From positions 1 to 64,000 of the IMG/VR virus record IMGVR_UViG_3300017780_006957: DNA of 64,000 nucleotides, one strand, 5' to 3'. The position numbers were made by a program, and so were the translations under genes. Within the stretch, counting starts at the first letter, position 1, and the number at the start of each line of letters is the position of its first letter. Origin of the DNA: a virus. Positions 2,640-54,420 of this stretch are shown here, in pieces. Under the pieces are notes generated by a model, which was given only the letters and a program-made list of their open reading frames with translations, ran no database searches and was not told the DNA's origin.

Positions 2640-4644
2640 TTGATTTACTATGGTATAAGATTGCTGATGAATAATTATCTAATTGATGATCACTGGAAAT
2701 ATCTAAAATATCATCCATTATGCCCAACGATTCAATATTTTCAAAATTGTTTACACAAGAAATTAATTGTTCGTTCCAATTTTCTAAATTAGCAGAACAT
2801 ACTACGGCTTCGCATAATTTATCCAGCATCTGTTCTTGCAGCTTATTGAATTTTTTAATATTTAATGAATCTTTCAATAATTGTTTTGCAGAAGATCTCA
2901 CTTTTTCAATTTCATAAACGATATTTTGAATTCCTTTTCTAGAATAAGACGCTTTTGTGATAGGGATGCCAGTAGTTCCTGGTGGACGACCAGCCACCTT
3001 TGCTGTTTTATTGATGGCTGGAGCTGGAACGCCAATGCCCCCACCTTTCGGTAATTTAGGAGCAGGTGCTGGAATAACTGGAACTCCTCCAACAATGGGG
3101 TTATAGTAACCTTTCTTTCTCTCTTCAATATAAGTCTCTTGAGCGGGGGTAAGTTCGTCTGCTGTTGGAAATTTTCCATTATGGAACATCTCAATACCCT
3201 GTTGTGGAGTTAATACACCAAGTTCAATTAATCTCGTAGCCGCTCTCATTAATTGAGTTTCATCCCTCATATCAAGATCCTTAAATGTGGCTGTTGGATA
3301 TGATCTGAATCCTAAATCAATAGAAATTCTTTTTATTTCTTTTTGTAGGAAATCATTTAAAAATGCATATCTAGATTCTTTTAGTCTATCAGTAAAGATT
3401 TGAGCTTTTACTTCTGTGGCACTATATTTCTCTTCGCCAACAACAATATTCTGAAGTCCTTGCTTAATATCTTCATTTAAAATTGCATATTTTTCTTTTC
3501 CTAATACTTTATTAAGATCGGGAATAATAAAGTCCGCTTTGGTTGTATAGTCTGAAATAAGAACTCTGCCAACGCTTTCATTTTTGAATAAAGTTTGCAT
3601 AGCGTTTAAATTTTGTGGATTAATTCCACCTTTATCTGGCTCCGCACCCATAGTAATCAATAGAACCACATTCTCCACAGTTCTTGTGATAGCTTGATCC
3701 ATCTTCTTAAGCTCAAGCTTTGCATTAATATCCTCTAAGACTGGATAACCAAATGGAATTGCAAATGGCTCATAATCTTGCTTTTTATAAAACGAATATG
3801 AAAGTTTTTTGGGATCAATTTTAATTTTTAATCCATCTTTATAATAAGTTCCTTTTTTAATGGCTTCTTGAACATCTTTATCTAAGCCGTTAAATATGTC
3901 TCTATCCTCTTCGGTTACTGGATTTTGTAATCTAGCCATTTCATATTCTGAAAGAATTTTTTCAAATGCCCCGACAGCAAAAGTCGAAGTTCTTTTGGCG
4001 ACAACATCGAAAGGGTTCAATAAAATATATCTTACTGGTATTTGATTAATAATTTTGCTTTCTGGAGTGCCAGAAGAAGATAATTTCATAAAATCATTAA
4101 TAGTAAATTTACCATCAACGCGATACAAGAAAACATTTCCGCTTCTATAGTATTCTCTAAAATACTGGTCTTTTAAATTCCAAATATTAATTTTTTTAAA
4201 CCAATCTTCAAAAAATTCTCTACTTTTAGATGTCCCACCTTCTAGAAAAATATCTGTATTGGCAAATTCAGACATAATATCAATTGCGTTTCTAAAGACA
4301 GCAACATTTGCATATGCTTTTTGGCAAAGTTCAATTGCATCTCTGACATGAACACCGTCTGAGGCGTAATGATAAGGAAGCATACCTCTTCGGATGCTAC
4401 TGAAGCGATCTATAGTTTCAGAAACAGCGGCTCTATTGATGCGAGTCTTAGTTTGCATTCCACCAGAACTGGTTCTTGATGCAGAAGCTCTTGACTCTGA
4501 AACATACGAAGCGTCTGAAACATAAAATGGATCTCCACATAATTCTGGAGAAAAGACTTGAGATTCTTGCGCTATAGATACATTATTAGGATTACCAAAC
4601 TTATCCCAATACTCAGATTTTTTATTATAATTTCTCTTTGCCAT
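2629..4644 (-). CDS. Portal protein
   Basis: 671 aa directly downstream of terL; AYANVAVFRNAIDIM and REYYRSGNVFLY are portal-like segments. Confidence 0.75.
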   Translation of the reverse strand: MAKRNYNKKSEYWDKFGNPNNVSIAQESQVFSPELCGDPFYVSDASYVSESRASASRTSSGGMQTKTRINRAAVSETIDRFSSIRRGMLPYHYASDGVHVRDAIELCQKAYANVAVFRNAIDIMSEFANTDIFLEGGTSKSREFFEDWFKKINIWNLKDQYFREYYRSGNVFLYRVDGKFTINDFMKLSSSGTPESKIINQIPVRYILLNPFDVVAKRTSTFAVGAFEKILSEYEMARLQNPVTEEDRDIFNGLDKDVQEAIKKGTYYKDGLKIKIDPKKLSYSFYKKQDYEPFAIPFGYPVLEDINAKLELKKMDQAITRTVENVVLLITMGAEPDKGGINPQNLNAMQTLFKNESVGRVLISDYTTKADFIIPDLNKVLGKEKYAILNEDIKQGLQNIVVGEEKYSATEVKAQIFTDRLKESRYAFLNDFLQKEIKRISIDLGFRSYPTATFKDLDMRDETQLMRAATRLIELGVLTPQQGIEMFHNGKFPTADELTPAQETYIEERKKGYYNPIVGGVPVIPAPAPKLPKGGGIGVPAPAINKTAKVAGRPPGTTGIPITKASYSRKGIQNIVYEIEKVRSSAKQLLKDSLNIKKFNKLQEQMLDKLCEAVVCSANLENWNEQLISCVNNFENIESLGIMDDILDISSDHQLDNYSSAILYHSKSNEN

Positions 4645-48292: not shown

Positions 48293-48297
48293 AAAAT

Positions 48298-48369
48298 TGG
48301 TGGAGCATTTCGGAACTGCCCCGAAGTCCGCAATGCATATAGCATTACGTCGAAATCTATATATGCCCC
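48298..48369 (-). ncRNA. Minimal tmRNA-like RNA (tRNA-like domain only)
   Basis: GGGGCAT-ATATAGATTTCGAC-GTAATGC-TATAT-GCATTGC-GGAC-TTCGG-GGCAGTT-CCGAA-ATGCTCC-A-CCA; G3.U70 pair, no D-stem. Confidence 0.8.
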
Positions 48370-48852
48370 TTAACTTTCTTTATTAAACATTACATAATTA
48401 TGAACAGAAACAACATAATCTTCTGCTACAGCAAGTTTACCCTGCATCCATGTTTCTGTCAAGTTATCTTGCACTTTTAAATCATCTAAAGCTGCCAAAA
48501 TGTTTTCGGCGTGAGATTTGATTGAAGCAATAGATCCAATAGCCATTTCATAAAGATCTTTCTTGTATTCGGTCAACTCCTCTTCTGGACTTTCATCTTC
48601 CATTTCTGGAGCATTAAAATCCACTTCTTCAGCCTTGCTAACTTTTTTAAGTGGTTCTGCAAAATCAAGAAATTCATCATCGCCAGATCCGACGACAACA
48701 TCAGCAGAAGCTTTGGCTTGATCGAATTGAGTATAACAGATTGCAATGCGCTGTTGATTGTCTTTGAACTTAGGGTCTTTGGCTACTTCAGAGATGCAGC
48801 GGCCCACAAAATCCTTTTTCTTTTCTTTTTTCTCAGGAGTTGGTAAAGGCAT
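48370..48852 (-). CDS. Late hypothetical protein
   Basis: MPLPTP...DFVGRCI...QRIAICY motif; GTGTAA upstream. Confidence 0.65.
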   Translation of the reverse strand: MPLPTPEKKEKKKDFVGRCISEVAKDPKFKDNQQRIAICYTQFDQAKASADVVVGSGDDEFLDFAEPLKKVSKAEEVDFNAPEMEDESPEEELTEYKKDLYEMAIGSIASIKSHAENILAALDDLKVQDNLTETWMQGKLAVAEDYVVSVHNYVMFNKES

Positions 48853-49227: not shown

Positions 49228-49359
49228 GTTTAATTATCCTTGGCCGCGATACTTTTTTCTATAATTTTTTGAATTCTTTAGATGAGAGGTCTTGCTTTTA
49301 GCATGGATTCCCTTGCGCTTCTTAGACTTTACACCGTTTTTTTGGTTCTTCTTGTTCAT

Positions 49360-50577: not shown

Positions 50578-50617
50578 TTTTTTATTTTATCTCACTGACT
50601 TACTCAGTGATGTCCTT

Positions 50618-50646
50618 ATCTTACTCTTAGTTGGCGGGATTGTCAA
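50618..50646 (-). promoter_or_regulatory. Sigma70-type promoter for the tRNA/tilS block
   Basis: TTGACA-17-TAAGAT. Confidence 0.7.
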
Positions 50647-50692
50647 CTTTTTTCTGCAAAAAAAGTGTAATGAGATTAAACACATTAAAATT

Positions 50693-52003
50693 ATGTCCGC
50701 TCAATACACTTTTAATCACCTTGGGCAGCTGTCCCACAGTGCAGCCACAATGCCGTGTCTTTATGATAGCGCACAAGATGTATATAGACCAATAAATGAT
50801 TTAGATTTTGGTGGCCAAGGAAGCTATACATCAAAGGGAAGATTAAAAACTTCAAACGTCGAAACGTTCTTCTTTAATACATTTCAATATGGTAAAGAAA
50901 CCGATATTTGGGACGAATCAACTGCAAATGGTGGTTCAGGAATATACGATTCTAACATTAATCAAATTGATATGTCAGTCAGTAATATCTCTGGATCTGA
51001 ATGCGTTAGACAGACAAAAAATGTCCAAAGATATGTTCCTTCAAGAAATTCTAATTTAGCTTTTGCGGTTAAATTAGGAAATCCAACTCTTGGAATTAGA
51101 AGACGTTTTGGTTTGTTTGAGCCAAACGATGGAATCTTTTTCGAAGATGGCGGCGATAATAATTATTATTGTGTTATCCGTAGTTCTGTTAGCGGCTCAG
51201 TGAATGAAATTAAAGTCGCAAGAAACAATTGGAATGGTGACAAATTAGATGGAACTGGACCAAGTAAAATAATTGCAAATCCGCAAGCTCAACAATTAAT
51301 TGCCATTGATTATGAATGGTATGGTGCTGGTGAGATAGGATTTAATTATGTTATTAATGGATCTCCCGTGAGAATACACACATTTAATACAGCAAATAAT
51401 TTTACTGATCCTTGGTGCAAAACTCCATTCTTACCTATAAGAGTAGAAATAACAAACACTAGTGGCGGTCAATCTAGCGGTAGATATCATATTTATCAAG
51501 GATCAAATTCATTAACCTCAGAAGGAAATTCATTAAATCTTGGCGTTGCAGAGTCTATTTCTACATCAATAGATGGAAAAGAAATTCCTAAAGATATATT
51601 TTATCCGTTAATAAGCTTAAGATTAAAATCTAATTCACTTAAAGGAGTTGTTTTTCCAAGACATTTTCAAGTAGCAACTACTGAAAATAATGTCCATGTT
51701 TTTTATAAAATACTTAGAAATGCCGCTATATCTGGGGCTGTTTGGCAAAATCATCCAGATACTAATTCATTTGTTCAATATGATATTTCTGGAACAGCAT
51801 ATAGTAATGGGCAAACTGTTGATGATGGTTTTGTTGTATATGGATCTTCCGCAGGTCAAATAGAACTTGATGATGCATTAAATTATCAAATAGGTAGAAG
51901 CGGCATGGGTCTATACAGTGATACTTACACATTGGCCGTAGCTCATACGGCATCCACAAATAGAAGCGTCATAGGATCTATGTCTTGGATTGAACAGAGA
52001 TAA
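50693..52003 (+). CDS. Putative virion structural protein
   Basis: 436 aa, beta-rich and SG-rich; GTGTAA upstream; has its own terminator. Confidence 0.55.
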   Translation: MSAQYTFNHLGQLSHSAATMPCLYDSAQDVYRPINDLDFGGQGSYTSKGRLKTSNVETFFFNTFQYGKETDIWDESTANGGSGIYDSNINQIDMSVSNISGSECVRQTKNVQRYVPSRNSNLAFAVKLGNPTLGIRRRFGLFEPNDGIFFEDGGDNNYYCVIRSSVSGSVNEIKVARNNWNGDKLDGTGPSKIIANPQAQQLIAIDYEWYGAGEIGFNYVINGSPVRIHTFNTANNFTDPWCKTPFLPIRVEITNTSGGQSSGRYHIYQGSNSLTSEGNSLNLGVAESISTSIDGKEIPKDIFYPLISLRLKSNSLKGVVFPRHFQVATTENNVHVFYKILRNAAISGAVWQNHPDTNSFVQYDISGTAYSNGQTVDDGFVVYGSSAGQIELDDALNYQIGRSGMGLYSDTYTLAVAHTASTNRSVIGSMSWIEQR

Positions 52004-52004
52004 T

Positions 52005-52036
52005 AAAAAAGCCTATCTTTTGAAGATAGGCTTTTT
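52005..52036. terminator. Bidirectional intrinsic terminator
   Basis: AAAAAAGCCTATCTT-TTG-AAGATAGGCTTTTT between convergent units. Confidence 0.85.
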
Positions 52037-52043
52037 AATGAAA

Positions 52044-52130
52044 TGGAGCTAAAGGTGAGATTCGAACTCACGGTGCGCTTTCGCATCTCGATTACAAATC
52101 GAGTCCTTTCGACCACTGAGGGACTTTAGC
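52044..52130 (-). tRNA. tRNA-Thr(UGU) with a class II (long variable arm) body
   Basis: GCTAAAG/CTTTAGC-T-CCA, CTCGA-TTTGTAA-TCGAG, variable arm TGCG-AAAG-CGCA. Confidence 0.8.
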
Positions 52131-52164
52131 AAAATATTAATTAATAATGGTTATGAAGTAAAAA

Positions 52165-52238
52165 GGCTCCCAGTTTTGGCAACGATCCAAACTCACACTG
52201 CTTAACAGGCAGGTCGCACGCCCTGTGCGTTACTGGGA
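52165..52238 (-). tRNA. tRNA-Asn(GUU) with an atypical T-loop
   Basis: TCCCAGT/ACTGGGA acceptor, G73, CTGTTAA loop, T-loop ATCGTTG. Confidence 0.78.
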
Positions 52239-52268
52239 TTTATATCTTATTATATAAGAATAAGAAAG

Positions 52269-53458
52269 TTTTTCTATCGCTGAAGAAGTCCCCCGTTTCC
52301 ACAGAGGTCAATGACCCTTCTTCACTTTTCTACAAGTACTAACTCGCTGGAGAGTTTGACCACGCGATGCGTAGCTACACTCATTTTCCTGTCCGTTTTC
52401 TCTGAATACTTCGGGCGATCAAAACGCACGATAGAAAATTGACCAATTCCTGACCTGCCGCGCACTACTTTATCAGGTATAGCCGCTTGCAGTCAGGCAA
52501 TTGGAAATGGTTTTGCGGCTCAGGTCGCTATATCGTGCAATGTGTTCCCAACCGAATAATCGTCTCGAAAGACTCGATTTCTATCAACTGCATTAACCCA
52601 TCACTGAATCGTGCGTTTTATGTTGACTACCTTGCACAAACGTCTTAGTTGACGAATACCCCTCAATGACCGCAAAATTAGTTTATCTGTCAGACCTTAA
52701 CGCCTATGCCCCTCGCGCATAGACAGCATCTTCGCTGGTTCACGGATGGGCCACTTTGTAGTGCCGTAAGTGCAGCACCTCAGACGGATCTCCAGCATAG
52801 GTCTTCACAGCTGTGTGTAGATATTCTCGACAGATAAAAAATGCAGAAGAGATTGGATTCGAACCAATATTGTACCATACTGCCCTTGGGCATCCAAGGA
52901 ATCGAACCTTAACGAAATAACCGTCGCTATTGCATTGCCGTTATGCTACTCTTCTAAAAAAGGTGGCTAGAGTGTTTGTGGAATCTCAGGAATTGCATCC
53001 TGTTATACTAGTAACTTGCCAGATTCCCTCTAGCCATTGAAAATTTGTCCATAGAGTATGCACTCTCAATGCGTTATGCAGGACTGGCACTAGCTATATG
53101 AATCCTTATAGCTGGAGAAGGAAGCCCGTAACCTTCATATGGCTTTTTATATTTACAATGTATGGTTATTAACCCACACGGAATTTCAAGCATTAACCCA
53201 CTACGTATATGGTAACTCACCGATTTCCATTGCAAAAATTAATATTCCTTTAATGGTAGGCGTTGTCGCATTCAAATCTCTACCCACCACAATCGCTTCA
53301 AGATTCTCGTTCGCTTACCGCACGGGGCATGAAGCCCCTTGTCCCATTAAGGGAATAAAATTTTTAAAATTTTTATTTATTAAAGAACAGTATTTTATCT
53401 CTAATCGTTGACTAGAGAGGATCTTTCGAATCTGAGTGACTCCTATTCAATCGATCTA
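52269..53458 (-). ncRNA. Tandem cluster of unassigned structured ncRNAs
   Basis: GC-richer stretch without a credible ORF, made of units each closed by a terminal helix and separated by A/T linkers. Confidence 0.7.
52842..52955 (-). ncRNA. tRNA-like RNA with an expanded anticodon region containing a second T-loop hairpin
   Basis: AGAAGAG/CTCTTCT acceptor, GCAT-AACGGCA-ATGC D-arm, ATTGG-TTCGAAT-CCAAT T-arm, internal AAGG-TTCGATT-CCTT. Confidence 0.7.
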
Positions 53459-53463
53459 TTTAG

Positions 53464-53492
53464 ATAATAACTTATGTTTTCGCTTATGTCAA
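53464..53492 (-). promoter_or_regulatory. Sigma70-type promoter heading the ncRNA cluster
   Basis: TTGACA-17-TATTAT. Confidence 0.7.
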
Positions 53493-53495
53493 CTT

Positions 53496-53714
53496 TTATC
53501 TTAGATTTAATTCACTCTCTACTTTTCGGAATCTGTCATCAGAATGCCAGATTTCATTTACTTGTGGAGTATAAACTCCATCAAGGGTTTGAATCGGGAC
53601 GTTCTTTTGCAGCTTTAAAGTAGAAGGTTGATAAATTTTCCAGTTCTTCACGTTCTCGTTTGAGTTCCATACGCAGGAGGTCTGCGCGATCAGCAGAAGA
53701 GCTGCCCCCATCAT
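53496..53714 (-). CDS. Putative o-spanin (Rz1-like lipoprotein)
   Basis: MMGAALLLIAQTSC lipoprotein-like signal; starts inside the upstream ORF in another frame. Confidence 0.5.
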   Translation of the reverse strand: MMGAALLLIAQTSCVWNSNENVKNWKIYQPSTLKLQKNVPIQTLDGVYTPQVNEIWHSDDRFRKVESELNLR

Positions 53715-53856: not shown

Positions 53857-54420
53857 TTATATAAAACTTTTCCACTCTTTTCTAATTTTGGACACCTGAA
53901 GAAAAAGATTAGGAATTACTGGAGCTTTTACTATTTCATTTTTAATATTAAAAAATGGAGAATGATCGGACTTCTTTTGATTGCAGTCAAGACAAGCCAA
54001 AGTCCTATTTTCGTGTTCATCAGTTCCGCCCTTACTTTTTGGTTTGATGTGATCAATAGTAAGATCTGCGATTTTAAATTTCTTTAAACAATACTGGCAA
54101 ATAGAATCATGAATTCTGCTTAATTCCGCCAAAGATAGTTTTTTCTTTTTGGGTTTTTTAAAAAATTTACTGGTTACAATAATAATTGTTGGAATTGGCC
54201 AAGAGCGTTTTGCGCTACGAAGAACGGGCTGATCTTCATGGAACTCCGCATAATCATTCCACTTCTCTATAGAATCAAACAAATTATTGTTTTTATCTAA
54301 AGCGGTGACATTTTGACTTAATAGATGCGCGAAAGCAGCCTTTGCTGTGATGGCAGTGATAGGTTGCCAAGCGTTATTAAGTAAGAGTGTGGTTCTAGTA
54401 TTGCAATCTACGATGTTCAT
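53857..54420 (-). CDS. HNH endonuclease (McrA-like)
   Basis: TLLLNNAWQPI, CQYC, LTIDHIKPKSKGG, LACLDCN. Confidence 0.85.
   Translation of the reverse strand: MNIVDCNTRTTLLLNNAWQPITAITAKAAFAHLLSQNVTALDKNNNLFDSIEKWNDYAEFHEDQPVLRSAKRSWPIPTIIIVTSKFFKKPKKKKLSLAELSRIHDSICQYCLKKFKIADLTIDHIKPKSKGGTDEHENRTLACLDCNQKKSDHSPFFNIKNEIVKAPVIPNLFLQVSKIRKEWKSFI

Follow-up and report, generated by a model that had tools for sequence, protein, structure and literature searches.

What does a phage encode in 1.2 kb of DNA that precedes two tRNA genes and holds no credible open reading frame (ORF)? This question is raised by positions 52269-53458, minus strand, of IMG/VR virus record IMGVR_UViG_3300017780_006957, the first 64,000 nucleotides (nt) of which constitute the window analysed here. 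An earlier reading of these letters, made without database searches (hereafter the sequence-only reading), had proposed that a promoter drives about 9-10 unassigned structured RNAs from this region and that they form a processed polycistron of novel phage small RNAs. In this study we observed that the region contains nine conserved RNA modules (U1-U9), that their base pairs covary among homologues, and that none of them belongs to a family catalogued in Rfam 15 except the tRNA-derived U5. In our view the region is probably a phage stable-RNA operon, i.e. a polycistronic transcript of nine structured RNAs and two tRNAs that would be matured by host RNases.

The RNA region is enclosed by transcription signals and tRNA genes and does not code for protein

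The RNA region lies within the largest ORF-free gap of the 64-kb window (52003-53496), and on the minus strand it is preceded by a promoter and followed by tRNA-Asn, tRNA-Thr and an intrinsic terminator. The features are listed below in this order; the folding z-scores compare each unit with its dinucleotide shuffles.

53464-53492, minus strand: sigma-70-type promoter TTGACA-17-TATTAT, 11/12 positions matching, the best site of the region
53403-53455, minus strand: U0, leader hairpin; z = -0.28, a single homologue (94% identical), unsupported as an RNA gene
53243-53357, minus strand: U1, three-way-junction RNA, present in the window in its long form; 39 IMG/VR contigs
53154-53235, minus strand: U2, 82 nt, closing stem of 6-7 bp; 11 distinct homologues
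53117-53136, minus strand: U3a, 20-nt hairpin that travels apart from U3b in relatives
53047-53116, minus strand: U3b, 70-nt multi-hairpin RNA; 7 distinct homologues
52964-53036, minus strand: U4, 73 nt, closing stem of 9 bp; z = -3.9; 4 distinct homologues
52842-52955, minus strand: U5, tRNA-like RNA; 40.4 bits on the Rfam tRNA model; homologues in contigs L250 and L251
52682-52838, minus strand: U6, 157-nt multi-helix RNA; 12 distinct homologues
52508-52677, minus strand: U7, multi-helix RNA of 170 nt, one of its hairpins variable in length; 14-15 distinct homologues
52443-52504, minus strand: U8, 62-nt long hairpin; z = -4.1; 10 distinct homologues
52269-52438, minus strand: U9, 170-nt RNA; z = -3.5; 15 distinct homologues
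52165-52238, minus strand: tRNA-Asn (GUU), in the orientation of the array and towards the 3' end of the putative operon; called by ARAGORN
52044-52130, minus strand: tRNA-Thr (UGU), its variable region enlarged by a long insert; called by ARAGORN, 54.8 bits in Rfam
52006-52036, minus strand: bidirectional intrinsic terminator, a 14-bp stem followed by a T-run

The promoter ahead of the region and the two tRNA genes behind it are thus where the sequence-only reading had placed them. The promoter is unchanged in the 97%-identical relative G001, and the more distant contigs L162 and L163 have a promoter at the equivalent place ahead of their array. All RNA units are co-directional with the tRNAs, and the terminator is common to the RNA operon and the convergent structural gene at 50693-52003. 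The GC content of the RNA region is 0.42-0.47, as compared to about 0.30-0.36 in its flanks.

The sequence-only reading had also found no credible ORF in 52269-53458, and this was borne out by the relatives. The longest ORF of the region (90 amino acids, plus strand, 53139-53411) is antisense to U1 and U2 and cannot be a conserved gene, because U1 and U2 are about 860 nt apart in the relative G003 and tRNAs lie between them. In addition, insertions and deletions of 1, 4 and 16-19 nt occur inside the units among relatives, which rules out coding. All of the closing helices that had been listed for the units were present. The folding z-scores reached -3.5 to -4.1 in three units (U4, U8 and U9) and were moderate, about -2.2 to -2.5, in three others (53243-53357, 52842-52955 and 52682-52838, i.e. 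U1, U5 and U6), and for 53403-53455, 53154-53235, 53047-53136 and 52508-52677 they were not significant alone.

The units behave as independent modules in related phages

Neither megablast nor blastn detected a match to the RNA region among 50,697 GenBank phages, and an exact 29-mer from U5 was absent from IMG/VR. The window is T4-like phage DNA with homologues of rIIA and rIIB and with thymidylate synthase and HNH endonuclease genes, and relatives were also sought through its proteins. The structural protein encoded next to the RNA region (436 amino acids) is 46-52% identical to cyanomyovirus proteins and a spring-water Caudoviricetes record, and its closest relatives (82-88% identical) were found in ENA, Logan and NCBI. 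At 44-55% identity this protein has relatives at one IMG/VR locus, in no prokaryote genome and at 80 JGI metagenome loci, and none of the latter 80 has a homologous RNA region or an adjoining tRNA cluster. No homologous RNA was found at the 80 loci of ThyX relatives either. The search with rIIA yielded three IMG/VR contigs (49-50% identity) with the syntenic tRNA cluster Met-Tyr-Gly-(gap)-Asn-Thr-Pro-Val, and in two of the three, L162 and L163, the gap aligns with U9 and with a 33-nt piece of U1. The pattern AARGGGCTTCATGCCCYGT, taken from this piece, matches 39 IMG/VR contigs, few such matches being expected by chance according to our estimate. Whole-record searches of these 39 contigs and three more pattern scans in IMG/VR provided the relatives used below: most of the units were present in five lineages, and some of them in about 20 additional contigs.

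The unit boundaries drawn by the sequence-only reading essentially coincide with the limits of the homology blocks in these relatives. U6 (1-157 of 157 nt), U7 (1-170 of 170), U8 (1-62 of 62), U2 (1-82 of 82) and U4 (73 nt) are all matched from end to end. In G002-G005 the same units are reordered, with other sequence and true tRNAs (among them Gly, Pro, Tyr and Met) in between, and G001, which is 96-97% identical across the operon, lacks exactly 52842-52954, that is, U5. Homologues of U9 extend to the distant lineage of L162 and L163. Every unit is single-copy in the window. One boundary had to be redrawn: 53047-53136, formerly taken as one unit, is in fact a 20-nt hairpin and a 70-nt module that are separate in relatives, since positions 1-20 and 41-90 of U3 lie about 2 kb apart in G002, and G005 has several partial paralogous copies of U3b. 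As for the number of units, nine modules (U1-U9) are supported and the leader hairpin U0, with its z-score of -0.28 and its one homologue, is not counted as an RNA gene, which leaves the lower of the two counts proposed earlier. Their conservation, covariation (see below) and cassette-like presence, absence and reordering imply that the units are independent evolutionary modules, apparently gained, lost and moved as whole cassettes.

The 12 nt flanking the units are U/A-rich and poor in G (7-9%, as compared to 19% in the background), so that the linkers had been described incorrectly as A-rich. Upstream of the units the flank is often a tRNA CCA end followed by AUUU. The CCA that had been pointed out after U7 (52508-52677) is not conserved among its homologues, in which CCA, CAC, CCCA, UUCA and CACU were all seen.

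Compensatory substitutions reveal selection on structure

Compensatory pairs were found among the homologues of all of U1-U9, in agreement with the structured RNAs proposed from the window alone, and they were strongest in U6 and U7. In U6 (12 sequences) both sides had changed in 15 of the 46 pairs, and 98.7% of the cells remained paired; none of 500 shuffles was as high and slid registers gave 0-4. The corresponding values for U7 (14 sequences) were 11 of 45 pairs and 99.8% of the cells, again with 0/500 shuffles as high and 0-4 in slid registers. The shuffle and slid-register controls cover these two units. Compensatory pairs amounted to 13/34 in the long form of U1 (5 sequences), 9/26 in the whole unit U3 (53047-53136, U3a included; 7 sequences), 8/37 in U9 (15 sequences), the closing stem of which displays a C-G to U-A change, and 5/17 in U8 (10 sequences). 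There were 3-4 of them in U2 (11 sequences), 3-4 in U5 (3 sequences) and 2/23 in U4 (4 sequences). The compensatory substitutions, together with the pair conservation in U6 and U7, imply purifying selection on structure. Moreover, the invariant G-U pairs of U7 would turn into A-C mismatches if the other strand were transcribed, indicating that the minus strand is the transcribed and functional one.

In several units a peripheral hairpin has been replaced wholesale or shortened and the remainder is nearly invariant, and the unpaired nucleotides are conserved more strongly than the helices. The invariant sequence comprises long unpaired stretches in U6, including GAGAAUAUCUACAC and CUACAAAGUGGCCC, an unpaired stretch in U7 (GAUAUAGCGACCUGAGCCG) and the 10-nt loop of U8 (ACCUGAUAAA). 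Such conservation of unpaired nucleotides above helices suggests a sequence-specific tertiary fold, or a binding partner, particular to each RNA. The internal variable hairpin of U2 has been swapped wholesale with its pairing kept, and it covaries; another hairpin of U2 is stacked directly on the 3' strand of the closing stem, an arrangement that resembles an acceptor/T-arm minihelix. On its 3' side U4 has CC and then six consecutive U, and its flanks there are CCUUUUUU or CCAUUUUU.

U1 illustrates how structure is kept while sequence changes. It consists, in order, of the P1 closing stem, GACAA (J1/2), the P2 hairpin GGGGC-UUCAU-GCCCC, GU, P3, CUA or CUUA (J3/1) and the return strand of P1. 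Among its 20 distinct variants the P2 hairpin is invariant; P1 has 9-13 bp in most of them and its sequence is fully changed between lineages with the pairing kept, and P3 varies between a 4-bp stem capped by a tetraloop (the 62-nt short form) and about 60 nt. The U1 motif regions span 41%-67% GC among the carrier phages, and U1 is usually placed within tRNA islands, on the tRNA strand. The motif was found in none of 185,579 prokaryote species (one genome each), and the short-form U1 (66 nt) had no match at E <= 1 among the 50,697 GenBank phages. The model R1, built from the short form, detected nothing in 40 control phage loci; it aligns the long form poorly, with P3 as a large insertion.

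Only U5 belongs to a catalogued RNA family

When the whole window was compared with Rfam 15 at gathering scores, nothing but the annotated tRNAs was found. The scans at E <= 10, which covered 51900-53700 and 52500-52845, revealed no ribozyme, riboswitch, RNase P, signal recognition particle (SRP), 6S, tmRNA, GOLLD, ROOL or HEARO RNA in the region; the ribozyme families without a match at this threshold included hammerhead, twister, pistol, hatchet, HDV-like and others, and no known Y-RNA-like match was present in Rfam 15. Inside the units the best non-tRNA scores were 13-18 bits, as compared to gathering scores of 50-80. The view of the sequence-only reading that the units are not RNase P, SRP, 6S or a known ribozyme agrees with these results, and most units are indeed unassigned. 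The exception is 52842-52955 (U5): the sole real match at E <= 10 was RF00005 tRNA on 52844-52955, with 40.4 bits against a gathering score of 29.

Of the tRNA cloverleaf, U5 retains the acceptor stem (7 bp, perfect), U8-A9, the D-arm and a T-arm of canonical form (GGUUCGAAUCC), and in the Rfam tRNA alignment it carries a 50-nt insert at the position of the anticodon arm. The 5-bp stem with a 7-nt anticodon loop is missing, and in its place there is a 6-bp stem with a tetraloop; the homologues share this stem, with GACG, GGCG or GGCA as the tetraloop. In the variable region there are another T-arm-like hairpin (AAGGUUCGAUUCCUU, with the 7-nt loop UUCGAUU) and one more hairpin, and no CCA is encoded. 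The homologue in L250 lacks the D-arm; otherwise L250 and L251 keep the plan. The acceptor stem and T-arm are conserved in the three sequences, and the T-stem shows one compensatory change. ARAGORN did not call U5 in default mode and called it only with introns allowed. U5 derives from a tRNA and cannot decode. RNase P and the CCA-adding enzyme recognise the acceptor/T-arm minihelix. The other units had no tRNA resemblance in ARAGORN or Rfam. Two intron-containing tRNAs proposed by ARAGORN (52282-52458 and 53069-53207) appeared only at -ps80 and had no support, and they were rejected.

The proposed stable-RNA operon and its alternatives

On these grounds we favour a phage stable-RNA operon. 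The single sigma-70-type promoter would drive a transcript of about 1.45 kb that ends at the intrinsic terminator and holds U1-U9, of 62-170 nt each, followed by tRNA-Asn and tRNA-Thr. Each RNA would be closed by a terminal helix, so that both of its ends are base-paired, as in other stable RNAs, and thus protected, and short, G-poor, U/A-rich single-stranded linkers would part the RNAs. Host nucleases of tRNA and rRNA maturation may then cut in the linkers and at the tRNA-like U5, releasing discrete stable RNAs; an RNase E-type endonuclease and RNase P are the likely enzymes, and RNase III could act on the closing stems. Across the relatives the cassettes behave like tRNA genes, which can be gained, lost, duplicated and moved within the tRNA island. 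Regarding function, we would speculate that the RNAs act in trans, as binders or decoys of factors, from host or phage, that take part in tRNA metabolism, translation or tRNA-targeting defence. We infer the co-transcription, processing, stability and function of the array RNAs from the layout and conservation described above.

Several considerations weigh against this interpretation. Metagenomes are the only source of this uncultured phage, and both expression and processing are deduced from its DNA. The covariation comes from 3-15 related sequences per unit and is thin for U4 (4) and U5 (3). A second, weaker promoter-like site (TAGAAA-16-TATAAT, 52276-52249, minus strand, 10/12) lies between U9 and tRNA-Asn, and the tRNAs may also have their own transcription; this site cannot be conserved in L162 and L163, because only about 12 nt separate U9 from tRNA-Asn there. 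Features for a tRNA-processing enzyme occur in U5 and, loosely, in U2 only.

A tentative alternative is that the array is a toolkit of many trans-acting structured RNAs, each with its own target, which could include, for example, tRNA-mimic decoys (U5), aptamer-like RNAs (U1, U6 and U7) and new ribozymes. U5 would then decoy tRNA-targeting defence nucleases or tRNA-modifying enzymes, and U1, U6 and U7 would sequester host proteins or small-molecule signals. If this were true, functional RNA cassettes would be exchanged at the tRNA islands of uncultured T4-like phages, and dozens of undescribed RNA classes would reside there.

It is unlikely that the units act in cis within the tRNA precursor, for instance as processing or stability scaffolds, attenuators or leaders. 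U9 could be a leader of tRNA-Asn: it is directly upstream of tRNA-Asn wherever both were found on one contig (the window, G002, G003, G005, L162 and L163). The short form of U1 often precedes U-rich sequence or adjoins promoters of tRNA sub-clusters, and CC and the run of six U after U4 could be understood in the same way. However, most units have no fixed tRNA neighbour, nine units are consecutive in the window with no tRNA between them, and a spacer or terminator could do without multi-helix junctions and without 60-170 nt of unpaired sequence that is largely invariant.

We regard as slightly less probable still a single giant multi-domain RNA, or a few of them, similar to GOLLD and ROOL, with the units as its domains. 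GOLLD and ROOL lie near phage tRNA islands, and GOLLD can carry tRNAs in a linker (PMC12286853). In the window there is also perfect complementarity over 12 nt between U9 (52421-52432) and U7 (52608-52619) and over 10 nt between the closing stem of U8 (52444-52453) and an internal hairpin of U4 (52986-52995). Against this, the units are lost, moved and interleaved with tRNAs singly in relatives, each of them closes on itself both in the fold of the whole region and in the consensus folds, and no GOLLD or ROOL match was obtained even at E <= 10. The 12-nt pairing of U9 with U7 was rejected as a conserved contact: it does not covary, in L169 the U7 segment is identical and its U9 partner differs, and in L210 and L181 the segment is replaced. 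The repeat UGGGUUAAUGC, shared by U2 and U7, was likewise rejected as a functional element, as it lies in the variable hairpin of U2 and is missing from the other 10 U2 homologues. The failed pairing, the variable repeat and the unconserved CCA after U7 argue against one co-folded giant RNA.

That some of the units are new self-cleaving ribozymes which cut the polycistron seems improbable to us. Such a role would suit units whose multi-helix junctions are compact and have invariant junction nucleotides, as in U1 (a three-way junction), U6 and U7, and the units sit where cleavage is needed; however, no ribozyme family was matched, no cleavage-site signature was identified, and host RNases are enough for the processing of tRNA operons. 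The cis-acting elements, the giant RNA and the ribozymes are all less likely than a stable-RNA operon. Lastly, decayed tRNA genes, rearrangement junk or short protein-coding genes are very improbable, since, despite the recombination-prone tRNA island beside an HNH endonuclease gene, the tRNA origin of U5 and the existence of short ORFs, the compensatory substitutions and pair conservation (98.7% in U6, 99.8% in U7) speak against decay, no unit besides U5 is tRNA-like in ARAGORN or Rfam, and frame-breaking indels and reordering destroy every ORF.

Further features of the tRNA islands

Several additional observations were made in the tRNA islands of the window and its relatives. After masking of tRNAs, U1-U9 and ORFs of at least 70 amino acids, the islands of the IMG/VR loci L162-L267 contained 341 ORF-free segments, which fell by a rough count into about 26 clusters of conserved sequence. 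Judging by these clusters, the RNA-cassette repertoire of this phage group is probably several times larger than the nine of the window. Contig L162 carries two tRNA-like RNAs that do not occur in the window, one at 1830-1935 with an acceptor stem, D-arm, T-arm and a large insert, and the other at 2992-3060 with 29.4 bits on the Rfam tRNA model. Inside the RNA array of the same contig there is an ORF of about 177 codons (2100-2673) with its own promoter TTGACT-17-TATAAT; it is missing from the sister contig L163 and represents a gene cassette inserted among RNA cassettes.

In the window, two more ORF-free segments beside tRNA genes of the same island, 49228-49359 (132 nt) and 50578-50692 (115 nt), may be additional RNA cassettes. 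An RNA of about 75 nt at 48293-48372 (minus strand) aligns with L162:6398-6465 and L164:4927-4991, which match the Rfam tmRNA model with 47.7 and 40.1 bits, respectively. These two matches span the whole model in about 68 nt and correspond to the tRNA-like domain of tmRNA (GGGGC...UUCGAC...T-arm...CCACCA) without the tag-coding part; the copy in the window is below the gathering score of the model. In the Rfam alignment the 87-nt tRNA-Thr that follows the array (52044-52130) shows a hairpin of 11 nt inserted in its variable region. As a rule, bacterial tRNA-Thr is of class I. An HNH endonuclease gene (187 amino acids, 53857-54420, minus strand) lies about 360 nt upstream of the promoter of the RNA operon. 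It could drive the exchange of cassettes and recalls segB, a homing endonuclease gene located inside the T4 tRNA cluster.

Comparison with known phage RNAs

It has been known from T4 for about fifty years that phage tRNA clusters can include small stable RNAs. In T4 the tRNA precursor and the species 1 and 2 RNAs are cut by maturation nucleases into stable RNAs whose ends are protected by closing helices. The T4 tRNA cluster ends with rnaC and rnaD (species 1 and 2), annotated as small stable RNAs, and has a homing-endonuclease gene in or beside it; the biological roles of rnaC and rnaD are unknown (PMC3014915). The units of the window resemble rnaC and rnaD in being structured non-tRNA RNAs (about 120-140 nt in T4) that are co-directional with a T4-type tRNA cluster, and they lie in a tRNA transcription unit on the same strand. 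In addition, rnaC ends in a T-arm and an acceptor 3' strand, as does U5. When profiles of U1-U9 were compared with the T4 tRNA region by nhmmer, only generic T-arm matches of U5 were obtained (E 0.014-0.02). In contrast to T4, the window has nine different RNAs instead of two, most of them without tRNA-like ends, and they represent a repertoire of cassettes shuffled across many uncultured phages. Thus, of the polycistron of novel small RNAs put forward by the sequence-only reading, the distinct structured RNAs within one promoter-to-terminator unit stand, and strict novelty is not supported, as RNAs of the T4 rnaC and rnaD kind were already known and U5 is recognised by the tRNA model of Rfam.

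GOLLD and ROOL RNAs assemble into RNA-only nanocages, as seen by cryo-electron microscopy, and show that RNAs beside phage tRNA islands can have remarkable architectures. Like the RNAs of the window, they are phage-encoded, structured and located near tRNA islands, sometimes with embedded tRNAs (PMC12286853). However, each of them is a single RNA of 500-800 nt or more with one conserved multi-pseudoknot architecture, whereas the window contains separable modules of 62-170 nt. The tRNA family RF00005 shares with U5 the acceptor stem, D-arm and T-arm; U5 differs from it in having no anticodon loop, extra hairpins and no CCA. The unnamed candidate structured RNAs DNAVirus_1 to DNAVirus_8495, published in Comput Struct Biotechnol J in 2023, were derived from IMG/VR v3.0 and comprise intergenic motifs with covariation, 29-151 nt in length and some of them tRNA-like (PMC10690425). 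Both this catalogue and the homologues used here come from IMG/VR, and some of the shorter units may already be among its 8,495 motifs; it describes no cassette arrays of tRNA islands, and our literature search found no description of such arrays.

The array could reveal a new RNA-based means of phage takeover of host translation or of evasion of tRNA-targeting defences. Its defined sequences, boundaries and consensus structures are concrete material for experiments, and U1 in particular offers a compact target, being a 62-nt three-way junction with an invariant hairpin carried by phages whose motif regions span 41%-67% GC. Nine conserved RNAs in one operon, without an Rfam 15 family save for the tRNA-like U5, exceed the two RNAs of T4. 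The kind is known from the stable RNAs of phage tRNA clusters and from GOLLD and ROOL, and the new aspects are the scale and the way the RNAs behave as cassettes, with nine unrelated RNA families in one operon. Considering these likenesses and differences, the array is best read as a richer version of T4 rnaC and rnaD.

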